Shown here: piece by piece, positions 1 through 3,879 of the stretch
Layout: each line of letters opens with the position of its first letter
How positions within the stretch are numbered: the stretch's first letter is position 1
Source of the DNA: Escherichia coli
GTDB taxonomy: Bacteria > Pseudomonadota > Gammaproteobacteria > Enterobacterales > Enterobacteriaceae
Assembly: GCF_041886205.1 (NCBI RefSeq)
Contig: NZ_CP169029.1
DNA: 64,000 bases
Reading direction: 5' to 3' (one strand)
Position numbers and translations under genes: made by a program
Notes under the pieces: model-generated
What the model saw: only the letters and a program-made list of their open reading frames with translations
Database searches by the model: none
Told to the model about the DNA's origin: nothing

Positions 1-456
1 TGCGGCTCCACCGCGTTTCTGCTTGGGCGGGAAATGTGTGGCAAGCCAGTGCAAATCATCACTAATTATCTACCGCTGGCAAATTACCTGATCGATCAAG
101 AACATGACAGCGTGATCATTATGGGTGGACAGTACAACAAAAGTCAGTCCATCACTTTAAGCCCGCAGGGCAGCGAAAACAGTCTCTATGCCGGGCACTG
201 GATGTTTACCAGCGGAAAAGGGCTGACCGCAGAAGGGTTGTATAAAACCGATATGCTGACAGCAATGGCAGAGCAGAAGATGCTGAGCGTGGTAGGGAAA
301 CTGGTGGTACTGGTTGATAGCAGTAAGATTGGCGAACGCGCGGGAATGCTTTTTAGCCGTGCCGATCAAATCGATATGCTTATCACCGGCAAAAATGCTA
401 ACCCGGAAATCCTGCAACAACTGGAAGCGCAAGGGGTCAGCATTCTGCGTGTTTAA
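1..456 (+). CDS. ulaR: DeoR-family repressor UlaR, 3' portion (5' end outside window)
   Basis: Open frame from position 1 to stop at 456; C-terminal sequence recognised as UlaR; convergent with yjfP as in E. coli. Confidence 0.8.
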
Positions 457-1202
457 AGATGCTGGCGGAAAAATGTCACGGCAGCATCTAACGCCTCAGG
501 CGTAATGCGGTGACGCACGCCTGGCTGCCATGAACAGGTTAGCAGTTTATCCCGTCCCGTCTCGCTTAAGGCCTGCTGCAAACGTAGTGATTCGTCGGCA
601 GGCACAACGTCATCGTCGAGGCCATGCCACAGCAGTAGAGGTCTGTCACCAAGTTGTTCCAGGTGGTTTGTCGCTTCCCACTCTGCCAGCGGCGCGACAA
701 TGTTATTGAATTCATTCTGCTGTGCTGCCGTTTCAGGTATCAGCGGTGGAAACAGTGAACGGGCGAGCGATGTAAAATAGCCCGATCCCATCATGCTGGC
801 GGTACATTTCACCGTGGGGTGGCGAGCGGTAATTCCCAGTGCCGTCATCGCGCCCATCGACGCGCCACCGACTGCCAGACGGTCATCAAGCAGCCAGTTT
901 TCTTCGGCTATTGCCGCACGTAAAGTACTGAATTCCTGCATACTTTGTAGCAAGATTTGCCAGAATTGATTTAACCGCCGCGCTGCGTCACCACTAAAAC
1001 GGCTACCGTGATCGGGCGCATCCGGCATGATCACCCGCAAACCAGCCTGCGCCAGCGCAACGGCAAAATAGCTATACACCAGACTGGATGAAGTAAAGCC
1101 GTGATAAAAAATTACGCACGGTAACGGGGTATCTTTTTGCCCGACAGGATAAGCATGAAGAACGGGAATATCTGCCAGCTCGCGTGATTCTATTTCAATC
1201 AT
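453..1202 (-). CDS. yjfP: esterase YjfP (alpha/beta hydrolase)
   Basis: 249 aa ORF, length and sequence match E. coli YjfP; hydrolase GxSxG-like motif (GGASMG). Confidence 0.9.
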
Positions 1203-1383
1203 CTGTCTCTCCTTTTTGTCTGGTATGACATGAAGAAATCCTTAGCACAAGTTTCTGCTGGCGGTATTAGTTCATAATGTTGAGATGTGGGTTACGCTTT
1301 CGTCACGTTTTCATTCAAAAATCGCGTACCAGGTAACAATTCGGGAACATTCCCCCAAAGTTAAATTAATAAGGCACTACACT

Positions 1384-1713
1384 ATGGTTAGCAGGAAACG
1401 TAATAGCGTTATTTACCGGTTTGCCAGTTTATTATTGGTGTTGATGTTAAGTGCCTGTAGCGCACTGCAAGGTACGCCACAGCCAGCACCGCCAGTAACG
1501 GACCATCCGCAAGAGATTCGCCGCGACCAGACGCAAGGGTTACAGCGAATAGGTAGCGTAAGCACGATGGTTCGGGGTTCTCCGGATGACGCATTAGCAG
1601 AAATCAGAGCGAAAGCTGTCGCTGCAAAAGCTGATTATTACGTTGTCGTCATGGTGGACGAAACCATCGTGACAGGACAGTGGTATTCACAAGCCATTTT
1701 GTACCGTAAATAA
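1384..1713 (+). CDS. bsmA: DUF1471 lipoprotein BsmA (biofilm stress and motility)
   Basis: Track ORF 1285..1713 trimmed to internal ATG giving the 109 aa lipoprotein (signal peptide ending LSAC). Confidence 0.85.
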   Translation: MVSRKRNSVIYRFASLLLVLMLSACSALQGTPQPAPPVTDHPQEIRRDQTQGLQRIGSVSTMVRGSPDDALAEIRAKAVAAKADYYVVVMVDETIVTGQWYSQAILYRK

Positions 1714-1861
1714 ATCAGACAACTTACATAGTCAGCTTTACATTGCTTTGCGTCCCTATGCGTTTACCTGTGCACAATAAATTACCGGCTGGAAGCCTGG
1801 GCGTTTATTACCGCGATGGAATGCCCTGCAACATGTGGGGAAACGAAAAATGGAGCTGACG

Positions 1862-2137
1862 ATGAAACAATTACTTGCCTCACCCTCGCTGCAATTAGTG
1901 ACTTATCCTGCGAGCGCCACGGCACAGTCTGCAGAATTCGCCAGTGCTGACTGCGTGACGGGCCTGAATGAAATAGGTCAGATCTCAGTTAGCAATATTT
2001 CAGGGGATCCGCAGGACGTGGAACGTATCGTGGCGTTAAAGGCCGATGAACAAGGTGCGTCATGGTACCGCATTATTACCATGTACGAAGACCAGCAGCC
2101 TGATAACTGGCGCGTGCAGGCGATACTGTATGCGTGA
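1862..2137 (+). CDS. yjfN: DUF1471 family periplasmic protein YjfN
   Basis: Track ORF 1835..2137 trimmed to MKQLLASPSL start (91 aa); paralogous to bsmA C-terminal domain. Confidence 0.8.
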   Translation: MKQLLASPSLQLVTYPASATAQSAEFASADCVTGLNEIGQISVSNISGDPQDVERIVALKADEQGASWYRIITMYEDQQPDNWRVQAILYA

Positions 2138-2162
2138 GTGTCATCTACAGCAAATGAACAAT

Positions 2163-2196
2163 GCCGGATGCGGCGCGAGCGCCTTGTCCGGCCTAC
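2163..2196. repeat. REP (repetitive extragenic palindrome) element
   Basis: gccggatgcggcg...ccggcctac palindromic unit typical of E. coli REP, located between convergent yjfN and aidB. Confidence 0.55.
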
Positions 2197-2253: not shown

Positions 2254-3879
2254 TTACACACACACTCCCCCCGTCGCCCGCAGCAATAAATCATTCTGGA
2301 TCTGCTCTGACAACCGTACGCCGCCGCGCGTATCTAACATCACCTGACACCACGCCTGCGCCATTGGCGGAGAGGCATATTTCAACATTTGCGCACCGCA
2401 GCCCAGCAGGAATAGCTGATGAGTAATCTCTCGCCCCAGTTCTTCAGCTGGCTTACGCAGCTGCTGCTGTAAACGACGAACCGCGCGATCAAAATAGCGA
2501 TCCTGCCCTTTCACTTCCACAAATGCTTCCGACAATAAGTCGTATACGCCCGCTTGCTTATTGAGAACGCGCAGCACATCCAGGCACATAATGTTGCCGG
2601 AACCTTCCCAAATACTGTTTACCGGCATCTCCCGGTAAAGCCGCGGCAGCTCGCTCTCCTCGCAATAACCAATGCCGCCCAGCACCTCCATCGCTTCGGC
2701 CACAAACGGCATACCTCGTTTGCAGATCACAAATTTTGCCGCAGGTGTAAATAAACGCGCCCACAGAGCTTCTTTGGCATCGGCGCGCCGGTCCCACGCT
2801 CGCGCAAGACGAAACAGCAACGCCGTTTGCCCTTCAAGCTGAAGTGCCATGCGACTTAAGACATGACGCATAAGGGGCTGTTGGATCAATGGATTACCAA
2901 AAACATGGCGTTGATGTGCATGATAAATCGCCAGCGAAAATGCACGGCGCATCATGGCATGGCTACCCAGGGCGCAATCAAAACGCGTCATCCCCCCCAT
3001 TTTCAGGATCAGACGAATTCCTTCCCCTTCCTGCCCCAATAACCAGCCAATGGCATCCTGAAACTCCACTTCACAACTGGCGTTAGAGCGATTACCCAGC
3101 TTATCTTTCAGCCGTTCGAGGCGAATCGCGTTGCGTTGCCCGTCAGGCAAAAAGCGCGGCACAAAAAAGCAGGACAAACCGCCCGCGGTCTGCGCCAGCA
3201 CCAGATGCGCATCGCTTTGCGGAACCGAGAAAAACCATTTATGCCCCACCAGCCGATAAGAGCCATCCTCCAGACGCTCTGCGCGGGTGGTGTTGCTCAT
3301 GACATCGGAACCGCCCTGCTTTTCCGTCATTCCCATGCCAATCAACAAACCGCGTTTTTGCCCACCTGGCAATAAGTGAGAATCGTAGCGATCGCTCAAC
3401 AGCGGCGTGGTCCAGTCCTGAAACGGCGTGGGTAACATCTGTAACAACAATGGCGTGGCGGCAAAGGTCATCGTTATTGGACATAACGACCCCGCCTCAA
3501 CCTGTGCGTGCAACATAAAACGCGCCGCGCGCGCCACAAATGCGCCGGAGCGAGCGTCTTCTTCCCAGGCAAGATTGTGCACCCGATTGGTACATAGCGC
3601 CTGCATCAGCAGGTGCCAGGCGGGGTGAAAACGCACATCGTCCAGACGGCGTCCTTGCGCATCGTAGCGCAATAATTCGGGCGGATTCACATTCGCCAGC
3701 CGCCCCAGTTCAAGGGATTCAGCCGTTCCTAACTGCTGACCAATACTGGCTAGAAAATCGCTATCCCAGCCAGCTCCTTCACGCGTTACCGCTTCGCAAA
3801 GCGCGCCATCAGACAGGTATAAGTTGCTGTTATTTAATGGTATAGGTTGATTAAAAACGGTGTGAGTTTGCCAGTGCAC
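2254..3879 (-). CDS. aidB: isovaleryl-CoA dehydrogenase-like adaptive-response protein AidB
   Basis: Track ORF 547 aa; recognised AidB sequence beginning at GTG (VHWQTHTVFNQ) giving 541 aa. Confidence 0.9.
   Translation of the reverse strand: MHWQTHTVFNQPIPLNNSNLYLSDGALCEAVTREGAGWDSDFLASIGQQLGTAESLELGRLANVNPPELLRYDAQGRRLDDVRFHPAWHLLMQALCTNRVHNLAWEEDARSGAFVARAARFMLHAQVEAGSLCPITMTFAATPLLLQMLPTPFQDWTTPLLSDRYDSHLLPGGQKRGLLIGMGMTEKQGGSDVMSNTTRAERLEDGSYRLVGHKWFFSVPQSDAHLVLAQTAGGLSCFFVPRFLPDGQRNAIRLERLKDKLGNRSNASCEVEFQDAIGWLLGQEGEGIRLILKMGGMTRFDCALGSHAMMRRAFSLAIYHAHQRHVFGNPLIQQPLMRHVLSRMALQLEGQTALLFRLARAWDRRADAKEALWARLFTPAAKFVICKRGMPFVAEAMEVLGGIGYCEESELPRLYREMPVNSIWEGSGNIMCLDVLRVLNKQAGVYDLLSEAFVEVKGQDRYFDRAVRRLQQQLRKPAEELGREITHQLFLLGCGAQMLKYASPPMAQAWCQVMLDTRGGVRLSEQIQNDLLLRATGGVCV

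Follow-up and report, generated by a model that had tools for sequence, protein, structure and literature searches.

Tandem DUF1471 genes bsmA and yjfN of Escherichia coli: a probable ancient duplication that gave a predicted lipoprotein and a reported DegP activator

The adjacent Escherichia coli genes bsmA (yjfO) and yjfN are very probably a core-genome pair of single-domain DUF1471 genes that duplicated and then specialised. After the duplication, BsmA would have kept or gained a lipoprotein signal, in which Cys25 lies, together with a proline-rich tether that is conserved. YjfN, of ~70 residues once exported, would be soluble in the periplasm. If the literature is followed, YjfN would be induced by the Cpx envelope-stress response, would bind DegP and would itself be degraded, and its degradation would allosterically activate DegP towards other misfolded substrates. 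The identity of the genes, their family and fold, their predicted export signals, their relationship as sisters and their synteny come from the present analysis; for the activation of DegP, the induction by Cpx and the phenotypes of BsmA we rely on published work. The gene pair, its family and fold, the argument for duplication and the mechanism of YjfN (published in 2018) were already known. What we add is a corrected function for yjfN, a test of the duplication claim, which found moderate support and defined its taxonomic spread, and a testable idea: that one copy became a DegP activator when its final one or two residues changed from Tyr-Arg/Lys to Tyr-Ala. The locus gives no new hold on what BsmA and most other DUF1471 proteins do at the molecular level.

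Results and Discussion

The open reading frames of bsmA and yjfN coincide with RefSeq coding sequences, whose coordinates were converted from a 100%-identical genome. Both genes are on the plus strand, and a 181-bp spacer separates bsmA from yjfP. A first-pass annotation of this DNA had described the two genes as tandem and divergent from yjfP, which is correct, and the gene names it used agree with RefSeq and with comparison to K-12. In positions of the window (the whole 64,000-nucleotide stretch that was analysed), the locus consists of the following features.

453..1202, minus strand: yjfP, esterase (open reading frame; NCBIfam NF007857, 450.9 bits against a cutoff of 201; RefSeq annotation)
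1203..1383: yjfP/bsmA divergent intergenic region, 181 bp, the presumed home of both promoters
1384..1713, plus strand: bsmA (yjfO) coding sequence, 109 aa plus stop, ATG start (RefSeq; NF011433; PF07338)
1714..1861, plus strand: bsmA-yjfN intergenic region, 148 bp
1852-1855: Shine-Dalgarno sequence of yjfN, GGAG, within the bsmA-yjfN spacer
1862..2137, plus strand: yjfN coding sequence, 91 aa plus stop, ATG start (RefSeq 'DUF1471 family protease activator YjfN'; PF07338)
2156..2193: lone REP-type palindrome in the gap where yjfN and aidB converge
2254..3879, minus strand: aidB, converging on yjfN from downstream (open reading frame and RefSeq annotation)

The bsmA-yjfN stretch was found in 5424 of 5426 complete genomes, with 100% identical copies in many RefSeq E. 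coli genomes, and positions 1203-2253 match K-12 at 1046 of 1051 nucleotides. This confirms bsmA and yjfN as a chromosomal gene pair of the E. coli core genome. YjfN is the K-12 gene product (b4188) in another E. coli strain, with no difference: 91 of 91 residues are identical, and the locus, its neighbours and the C-terminal Tyr-Ala are also the same. BsmA is identical to K-12 BsmA/YjfO (b4189) at 108 of 109 residues, the sole change being the conservative substitution K75R, and it has the same lipobox, linker and domain. On the NCBIfam BsmA equivalog model NF011433, BsmA scored 152.7 bits against a cutoff of 100. YjfN scored 51.0 bits on the same model and, because this falls below the cutoff, is a paralogue and not a BsmA.

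Downstream of yjfN, the element at 2156..2193 forms a hairpin, GCCGGA...TCCGGC, and we take it to be a REP from the general form of REP sequences. It gave matches to the REP-derived naRNA4 family of Rfam on both strands (29.6 and 24.3 bits, below the gathering score of 59.5). These sub-threshold matches were all that the Rfam scan returned downstream of yjfN, with no sRNA and no riboswitch.

Both products had been placed at first pass in the YdgH/BhsA/McbA family (DUF1471), and HMM scores and predicted fold agree on this. The Pfam model PF07338 (DUF1471, YdgH/BhsA/McbA-like) scored 56.9 bits for BsmA and 63.4 bits for YjfN, with a gathering score of 27, and both AF2 models, which are predicted and not experimental structures, have the order strand-helix-strand-strand. 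Alignment of the two products, on which the earlier proposal of paralogy had been staked, returned significant similarity: 30% identity over 87 aa by BLASTP (E 4e-8), and a probability of 96.8% (E 2.1e-10) when profiles of the BsmA and YjfN orthologues were compared with hhalign. Searching 1.84 billion representatives with a joint profile of BsmA and YjfN gave just 154 matches at E <= 1e-3. The named family members that we looked up belonged to Enterobacterales genera, bar one record labelled Pseudomonas aeruginosa, which is 600 bp long and 97% identical to E. coli BsmA. The DUF1471 / 'YhcN' family was in this way found to consist of Enterobacterales-restricted small envelope proteins with several paralogues per genome, and the ten paralogues counted in K-12 match the number in PMC12096828.

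Searching the PDB by sequence turned up neither a BsmA nor a YjfN structure; YjfN matched only 2m2j (E 0.12) and 2jna (E 0.66), and BsmA nothing relevant. Because these matches were insignificant, we compared folds from the AF2 models instead. The top five Foldseek PDB matches of the BsmA model were all DUF1471 structures (2m2j, 2jna, 2ma8, 4evu), as were the top five of the YjfN model, with an rmsd of 1.3-2.6 Å over 55-61 columns in four of the five. The solved members of the family are SrfN (2jna, 2ma8), domains of YdgH/SssB (2m2j, 4evu) and YahO (2ma4). For most top matches, the two models superimpose on these structures at an rmsd of ~1.3-2.6 Å over 55-72 columns, with an identity of only 16-28%.

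Among the paralogues, the soluble single-domain proteins YhcN, BhsA/YcfR, McbA/YbiM, YbiJ, YahO and RclB have the same Pfam domain and size as BsmA and YjfN, as well as stress-linked expression, a predicted Sec signal and a C-terminal xAx(I/L)Y motif. They differ in having no lipobox, in lacking the extra residues that precede the last strand in BsmA, YjfN, YjfY and YdgH, and in a basic end (Tyr-Lys; YKKK in YahO) in place of Tyr-Ala, and they form a separate group in trees.

The sequences bear out the shared C-terminal motif described at first pass: the last residues are ...GQWYSQAILYRK in BsmA and ...DNWRVQAILYA in YjfN, and QAILY is limited to these two among the ten K-12 DUF1471 proteins (12 domains). 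As a sign of common origin the exact match is weakened by the YjfN orthologues of Edwardsiella and Nissabacter, which end otherwise (TAALYR and SATLYR, respectively). Endings also vary among BsmA orthologues, which include NALLYK, SAILYG..., RAVLYR, VATLYR and QAILYR. It is possible, though on balance we doubt it, that QAILY is not ancestral and arose later within the Enterobacteriaceae, either through parallel changes or because gene conversion over a short tract homogenised the two tandem genes. Such a late origin would account for the different endings of YjfN outside the Enterobacteriaceae and for the variety in BsmA, and bootstrap support for BsmA and YjfN as sisters, 85% with the motif columns, is 61% without them; however, Nissabacter BsmA has QAILY too, which makes an ancestral origin of the motif in BsmA possible. 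Furthermore, the E. coli bsmA and yjfN products are only ~30% identical outside the motif, and in an informal look we noticed no extended DNA identity that would suggest a recent conversion tract.

The coding sequence of yjfN divides into four parts.

1862..1924, plus strand: predicted Sec signal peptide, residues 1-21, with predicted cleavage between ATA and QSA
1925..1963, plus strand: first segment of the mature protein as predicted, residues 22-34, QSAEFASADCVTG
1964..2131, plus strand: DUF1471 domain, residues 35-90 (Pfam match)
2132..2134, plus strand: codon of the C-terminal Ala91, read from the sequence; the reported DegP-engaging hydrophobic terminus

The first-pass annotation had called the two products secreted or lipoproteins, and YjfN fits this with its predicted Sec-type signal, which has an A-x-A site; where in the cell the proteins reside is taken from the literature. 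Across orthologues, the N-terminal 21 residues are variable and conservation starts at A21/Q22. E. coli YjfN has an unusually weak h-region, with a top 9-residue Kyte-Doolittle mean of 1.19 versus 2.13 in Salmonella and Enterobacter. Residues 22-34 are invariant across 13 orthologues save for position 23 (S or P), and they contain the single cysteine of YjfN, Cys31, in an ADC motif present in 106 of 108 cluster representatives. The orthologues of Edwardsiella and Nissabacter lack the ADC segment with its cysteine. In the AF2 model, strands at 37-47, 68-76 and 82-90 and a helix at 50-63 all have pLDDT >90.

The first-pass annotation had professed no knowledge of what yjfN does. That statement does not stand, as YjfN is a published DegP activator and carries the RefSeq name 'protease activator YjfN'. 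PMC12096828, PMC6094958 and bioRxiv 10.1101/2024.12.25.630354, citing Kim et al. (2018, J Bacteriol 200), describe YjfN as a Cpx-induced 'suicide activator' of DegP. Its activation of DegP is said to need the hydrophobic C-terminal alanine (PMC12096828, citing Kim et al. 2018), and activation of DegQ in vitro is also described. CpxP resembles YjfN in being small, periplasmic and induced by Cpx, and in that DegP consumes it as it helps substrates to be degraded, but the two are unrelated in fold and family and the likeness is a functional analogy only; in a CsgA assay, DegP was activated by YjfN and not by CpxP (bioRxiv 10.1101/2024.12.25.630354).

Of the 108 YjfN cluster representatives whose C-terminal motif is intact, at least 99 end exactly in ...YA or ...YV, and all other E. 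coli family members end in basic residues (...YK, YR, YRK or YKKK). All sequences in which we saw the Tyr-Ala/Tyr-Val end and the lone, nearly invariant Cys31 bore names of Enterobacteriaceae or of close relatives; the syntenic YjfN of Edwardsiella and Nissabacter has the family-typical Tyr-Arg end and no cysteine. The Tyr-Ala terminus may thus be derived in the Enterobacteriaceae and their close relatives, and may have created the DegP-activator role. We would tentatively read that role as a recent neofunctionalisation on a much older bsmA-yjfN tandem pair, a reading we rate at somewhat less than an even chance. If it is true, YjfN of Edwardsiella and Nissabacter, as well as BsmA with its Tyr-Arg-Lys end, are predicted not to activate DegP, and exchange of the one or two C-terminal residues would make a protease activator of an otherwise typical DUF1471 protein, or undo such activity.

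Three features of the bsmA-yjfN spacer bear on the regulation of yjfN.

1735-1778: conserved spacer block (four-genus alignment)
1737-1751: CpxR-box-like site TTTAC-N5-TTTGC, TTTACATTGCTTTGC, with one mismatch to the CpxR consensus
1773-1778: -10-like hexamer CACAAT, in the conserved spacer block

From these we suggest that a separate, Cpx-responsive yjfN promoter may lie in the 1735-1778 block. Searching the whole window with the CpxR consensus returned 6 sites versus 3.35 expected, which is not significant, and we give weight to the box at 1737-1751 only because it is conserved across genera. The Edwardsiella spacer keeps TTTACA and not the second half-site. We consider it unlikely that the two genes instead form a single operon transcribed from the bsmA promoter, with yjfN having no stress-responsive promoter of its own. 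The genes are indeed on the same strand, 148 bp apart, with no terminator-like site found between them by a terminator scan, and just 39 bp separate them in Nissabacter; set against this arrangement is the 44-bp spacer block itself, which, with its CpxR-like box and -10-like hexamer, is conserved in four genera while its flanks drift. Moreover, the CpxR iModulon lists yjfN, bsmA is nowhere mentioned in the same study (PMC7657598), Salmonella yjfN is reported to be Cpx-regulated (PMC5428311), and bsmA and yjfN are annotated separately in K-12. The iModulon assignment has its own qualification, in that yjfN is in the CpxR iModulon yet was classed in the ChIP-exo study as neither a direct nor an indirect CpxR target (PMC7657598).

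Scanning 1150-2350 for the sigma-70 consensus gave no site, and the yjfP and bsmA promoters were accordingly not located in 1203..1383. When folded as RNA, the bsmA-yjfN spacer had z = -2.1, and 10 of 200 shuffled sequences did as well; for the yjfN-aidB spacer z was ~0.3-0.4. Neither value is compelling and no structured RNA is claimed. The sole terminator-like site in 1150-2350 lies inside bsmA on the wrong strand and is uninformative on regulation.

bsmA and yjfN most likely come from one ancient tandem duplication, after which the copies specialised. The first-pass annotation had proposed such a duplication, and Eletsky et al. 2014 (PMC4092069) had already treated the adjacency of the two genes as one; our results lend the proposal moderate support. 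BsmA and YjfN were sisters in neighbour-joining trees with 85% bootstrap, and with 72% when outgroup taxa were added, which is moderate support because the trees used ~62 columns and distance methods only. Gene order, taken from context look-ups of exact proteins, places the tandem pair in synteny in three Enterobacterales families. The order yjfP(-) bsmA(+) yjfN(+) is kept in Klebsiella, Pluralibacter and Kosakonia; in Edwardsiella a bsmA(+) yjfN(+) tandem adjoins yjfP, and in Nissabacter a chemoreceptor gene precedes bsmA in the same tandem. Yersinia, Pantoea and Pectobacterium have bsmA without yjfN, so that an 'ancient' date requires later losses.

Solitary bsmA at the same locus in these three genera would also be expected if the two genes were chance or translocated neighbours, a YhcN-like paralogue ancestral to YjfN having landed beside an older bsmA. 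The best E. coli BLAST paralogue of BsmA is YjfN, and that of YjfN is YhcN (42.4 bits, 38% over 53 aa) with BsmA at 33.5 bits; the NCBIfam YhcN model likewise scores YjfN slightly over the BsmA model (51.8 versus 51.0 bits, about equal). We nevertheless regard translocation as quite improbable: a YjfN+YhcN bipartition appeared in no more than 3% of bootstrap replicates versus 72-85% for BsmA+YjfN, the extra residues before the last strand are common to the BsmA, YjfN, YjfY and YdgH domains and missing from YhcN and BhsA, and every genus carrying both genes has them in the same tandem order and orientation. Tandem duplication therefore stays our preferred account of the pair. We also considered a clade of the three neighbouring paralogues YjfY, BsmA and YjfN, which had only 34-36% bootstrap and is not claimed.

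The coding sequence of bsmA comprises an export signal, a linker and a domain.

1384..1458, plus strand: lipoprotein signal peptide, residues 1-25, read from the sequence
1459..1539, plus strand: conserved proline-rich linker, residues 26-52, SALQGTPQPAPPVTDHPQEIRRDQTQG
1540..1707, plus strand: DUF1471 domain, residues 53-108 (Pfam match)

BsmA/YjfO was reportedly described by Weber et al. in 2010 as a biofilm, stress and motility lipoprotein, and the first-pass call of secreted or lipoprotein products fits its lipobox, LSAC. The signal has a basic n-region, the h-region FASLLLVLML and the lipobox L22-S-A-C25 at 1447-1458. Cys25 is invariant in 8 orthologues, with a lipobox of the form L(S/C)(A/G)C; LSAC or LSGC is present in 118 of 120 BsmA cluster representatives, and the Cys-bearing signal is also found in proteins of Yersinia, Pantoea, Pectobacterium, Edwardsiella and Nissabacter. 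The lipobox +2 residue is Ser/Thr and not Asp; by the Lol rule, BsmA probably sits in the outer membrane, anchored at its periplasmic face. Mutants of bsmA show altered biofilm formation and motility and greater sensitivity to acid and peroxide (PMC4092069, PMC4783026).

BsmA, unlike YjfN, recalls RcsF in its lipoprotein signal, its proline-rich tether and the topology of its small alpha/beta domain. By this analogy BsmA would be an outer-membrane lipoprotein that monitors or contacts outer-membrane proteins and not a passive stress 'shield'. After DUF1471 structures, the next Foldseek matches of the BsmA model were E. coli RcsF (2y1b and 2l8y; for 2y1b, E 0.024, target TM-score 0.66 and rmsd 2.8 Å over 84 columns), the BsmA signal, together with the strongly conserved linker, weakly matches the RcsF NCBIfam model (E 0.079), and the similarity between the DUF1471 and RcsF folds had been pointed out by Eletsky et al. 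(PMC4092069). We hold an RcsF-like role to be very unlikely nonetheless, since all RcsF scores are sub-threshold, BsmA has no significant sequence similarity to RcsF, and it has no disulfides, the RcsF disulfide cysteines being absent (family-wide, according to PMC4092069).

In the AF2 model of BsmA, pLDDT is 88-95 from about residue 31 on and >94 in the elements of the domain (strands at 54-64, 85-93 and 99-108, helix at 67-80). The strong conservation of the linker extends across genera. Within E. coli, in-frame indel alleles of other strains fall in this linker, and the allele here has the K-12 length.

Identity of the locus

The DNA under study is E. coli chromosome. The stretch at 1150-2300 matches many RefSeq genomes at 100% identity and is present in 5424 of 5426 complete E. 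coli genomes; it has 5624 matching places, two of them on plasmid-labelled records, and some genomes carry two places. We converted the feature table of one identical RefSeq genome to window coordinates, which gave:

453-1202, minus strand, yjfP
1384-1713, plus strand, bsmA
1862-2137, plus strand, yjfN
from 2254, minus strand, aidB

The first-pass annotation had placed adjacent bsmA and yjfN genes at 1384-2137, arranged in tandem and divergent from yjfP. These coordinates and the K-12 record bear this out: the limits of the span coincide with the start of bsmA and the stop of yjfN, with both genes on the strand opposite to yjfP. K-12 has the same gene order in the opposite orientation, and its record calls the products “DUF1471 domain-containing putative lipoprotein BsmA” and “protease activator YjfN”. 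Compared with K-12, YjfN has no residue changes and BsmA has one, K75R. A lone palindrome (2156-2193), presumably a REP-type element, lies where yjfN and aidB converge and gives sub-threshold matches to Rfam naRNA4 on both strands.

BsmA and YjfN are related DUF1471 proteins

The two products are significantly similar on pairwise alignment. BLASTP gave 30% identity across 87 residues (E 4e-8), and hhalign comparison of profiles built from 13 YjfN and 8 BsmA sequences gave a probability of 96.8% (E 2.1e-10, 62 columns). Both matched the YdgH/BhsA/McbA-like family, Pfam PF07338 (BsmA 56.9 bits, YjfN 63.4 bits; gathering score 27), and BsmA also passed its NCBIfam equivalog (152.7 bits, cutoff 100). 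AlphaFold models made from orthologue alignments have in common a strand-helix-strand-strand domain (pLDDT > 90), and the best five Foldseek matches of each model in the PDB were solved DUF1471 structures (SrfN and YdgH domains I and III). The Pfam scores and predicted folds thus uphold the family assignment. The proposed common W...QAILY ending was also found: BsmA finishes with ...WYSQAILYRK and YjfN with ...WRVQAILYA, and of the ten DUF1471 proteins retrieved from K-12 no others have QAILY. The observation is confirmed and its interpretation supported, with the function of yjfN updated.

Evidence for a probable tandem duplication

The top E. coli paralogue of BsmA is YjfN (33.5 bits; runner-up 21.2). 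The relationship is not reciprocal, as YjfN matches YhcN best (42.4 bits) and BsmA second. In neighbour-joining trees (distance only, ~62-column domain alignment), BsmA and YjfN grouped in 85% of bootstraps, in 61% without the five QAILY columns, and in 72% with Yersinia, Pantoea, Pectobacterium, Edwardsiella and Nissabacter sequences included, while YjfN grouped with YhcN in at most 3% of replicates. Additional residues ahead of the last strand are common to BsmA, YjfN, YjfY and the three YdgH domains and are missing from the YhcN/BhsA group; a clade of YjfY, BsmA and YjfN reached a bootstrap of only 34-36%.

The order yjfP(-) bsmA(+) yjfN(+) also occurs in Klebsiella, Pluralibacter and Kosakonia. 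In Edwardsiella the bsmA(+) yjfN(+) tandem adjoins yjfP, and in Nissabacter a chemoreceptor gene, not yjfP, precedes it. Yersinia kristensenii (locus L014), Pantoea (L015) and Pectobacterium polaris (L016) have bsmA without yjfN at the corresponding locus. The Yersinia and Pantoea loci have no space for a yjfN remnant; the end of bsmA is 15 bp from aidB in Yersinia, and the two genes overlap in Pantoea. The simplest reading, and probably the correct one, is a single duplication predating the split of these Enterobacterales families, followed by yjfN loss in some lineages. The earlier proposal of an ancient tandem duplication thus gains from the 72-85% bootstrap values and from conservation of the tandem across genera, but falls short of proof, given the short domain and the use of distance trees only. 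Eletsky et al. (PMC4092069) had already taken the neighbouring positions of yjfN and yjfO (bsmA) to indicate that the family expanded by duplication. Because the genes, family, fold and duplication argument are already known, the pair is of low interest.

A third DUF1471 gene, yjfY, lies directly across yjfP in Klebsiella, Kosakonia, Yersinia and Edwardsiella, an arrangement with two or three family members in ~2 kb beside the rpsF-priB-rpsR-rplI operon. The E. coli chromosome has the ula operon, from ulaR to ulaF, between yjfP and yjfY. A Cache/HAMP methyl-accepting chemotaxis protein gene flanks the bsmA/yjfN region in several genera; insertions have evidently occurred here more than once.

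Neighbouring genes at the compared loci (locus:coordinates)
L002:19517-19792, K-12, yjfY
L008:2290-2565, Klebsiella, yjfY
L012:1965-2237, Kosakonia, yjfY
L014:2652-2927, Yersinia, yjfY
L017:2287-2556, Edwardsiella, yjfY
L015:2013-3944, Pantoea, chemotaxis gene between yjfP and bsmA, just upstream of bsmA
L018:1665-3587, Nissabacter, chemotaxis gene just upstream of bsmA
L012:4445-6379, Kosakonia, chemotaxis gene downstream of yjfN

YjfN function and sequence features

The initial statement that the function of yjfN is not known has been superseded: in later papers, which cite Kim et al. 2018 (J Bacteriol 200), YjfN is described as a small periplasmic protein acting as a suicide activator of DegP. 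Its hydrophobic C-terminal alanine is reported to engage DegP (PMC12096828). In vitro, unfolded CsgA was degraded by DegP and DegQ only when YjfN was added, whereas CpxP gave these proteases no help (bioRxiv 10.1101/2024.12.25.630354). YjfN is elsewhere listed as “activator and substrate of DegP” (PMC6094958), yjfN is included in the CpxR iModulon (PMC7657598), and Salmonella yjfN is cited as a Cpx-regulated gene (PMC5428311). Overproduction of YjfN suppresses the growth defects of a strain without six cytoplasmic PPIases.

YjfN ends in Tyr-Ala. Every other E. coli family member has a basic C-terminal residue, whereas Ala or Val is terminal in at least 99 of the 108 YjfN cluster representatives with an intact C-terminal motif; the syntenic orthologues in Edwardsiella and Nissabacter have a Tyr-Arg end. 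From this distribution, the DegP-engaging terminus seems to be derived in Enterobacteriaceae and their close relatives, and the gene itself would be older.

The YjfN N-terminus looks Sec-type and is variable, and across 13 orthologues conservation sets in sharply at A21-Q22, the predicted A-x-A cleavage site. Residues 22-34, which precede the domain, are invariant in these orthologues save at position 23. They hold the sole cysteine, Cys31 (codon 1952-1954), itself invariant in the 13 and part of an ADC motif in 106 of 108 cluster representatives; cysteine is lacking altogether in the orthologues from Edwardsiella and Nissabacter. An unpaired conserved cysteine in a periplasmic protein, as in YjfN, is unusual.

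The predicted E. coli signal peptide (1862-1924), MKQLLASPSLQLVTYPASATA, has two prolines and is far less hydrophobic than those of the orthologues and YhcN (highest 9-residue Kyte-Doolittle mean 1.19, versus 2.13 and 2.47). Export efficiency may be different in Escherichia.

The yjfN start and upstream region

In an alignment of Escherichia, Klebsiella, Pluralibacter and Kosakonia, AATGGAGCTGAC upstream of yjfN is invariant, and (A/G)ATG follows it in the three genera whose alignment reaches the start codon. It holds a GGAG Shine-Dalgarno seven bases ahead of the ATG at 1862, which speaks for this annotated start and against the in-frame ATG at 1850. In the 148 bp between bsmA and yjfN there is no terminator-like site, and there may be some read-through from bsmA into yjfN.

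Within the spacer, a block at 1735-1778 is kept in the same four genera while its flanks diverge. It contains a CpxR-box-like TTTACATTGCTTTGC (TTTAC-N5-TTTGC), which is the CpxR consensus on the other strand with one mismatch, and a -10-like CACAAT. As a candidate promoter or operator of yjfN, the block would fit an independent Cpx-responsive yjfN promoter. We are cautious on the latter point because the CpxR motif count is not significant by itself and ChIP-exo did not class yjfN as a direct CpxR target (PMC7657598).

BsmA

BsmA is known from mutant phenotypes only: altered biofilm formation and motility and increased sensitivity to acid and oxidative stress (PMC4092069, PMC4783026). Its N-terminus has a basic n-region, a strongly hydrophobic h-region and the lipobox L-S-A-C25, and this predicted Cys-containing lipoprotein signal is kept from Escherichia to Yersinia, Pantoea, Pectobacterium, Edwardsiella and Nissabacter. 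The +2 residue of a lipoprotein sets its membrane destination under the Lol sorting rule, and since this residue is Ser or Thr in BsmA, the protein should be sent to the outer membrane. A strongly conserved proline-rich tether (GTPQPAPPV.DHPQEIRR.QT) leads into the DUF1471 domain.

E. coli alleles vary across the linker and helix (1459-1620) by short in-frame duplications or deletions. The variants include a duplicated QGTPQPAL, a duplicated QEIRRDQT, gain or loss of QPA, and a helix minus five residues (AKAVA), and products range from 104 to 117 aa. The linker length variation resembles what slippage between short direct repeats would give. In several cluster representatives the bsmA stop (1711-1713) is a sense codon, mostly adding six residues (...YRK-x-IRQLT); one reads ...YRKIRQLT.

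After the DUF1471 structures, the next structural matches of the predicted BsmA model (m5086cb62b08d) were E. coli RcsF (2y1b, 2l8y), and BsmA residues 16-51 (signal and linker) weakly matched the RcsF NCBIfam model (E 0.079). On these matches, BsmA and RcsF have a common architecture: a lipoprotein signal, a proline-rich tether and a small alpha/beta domain.
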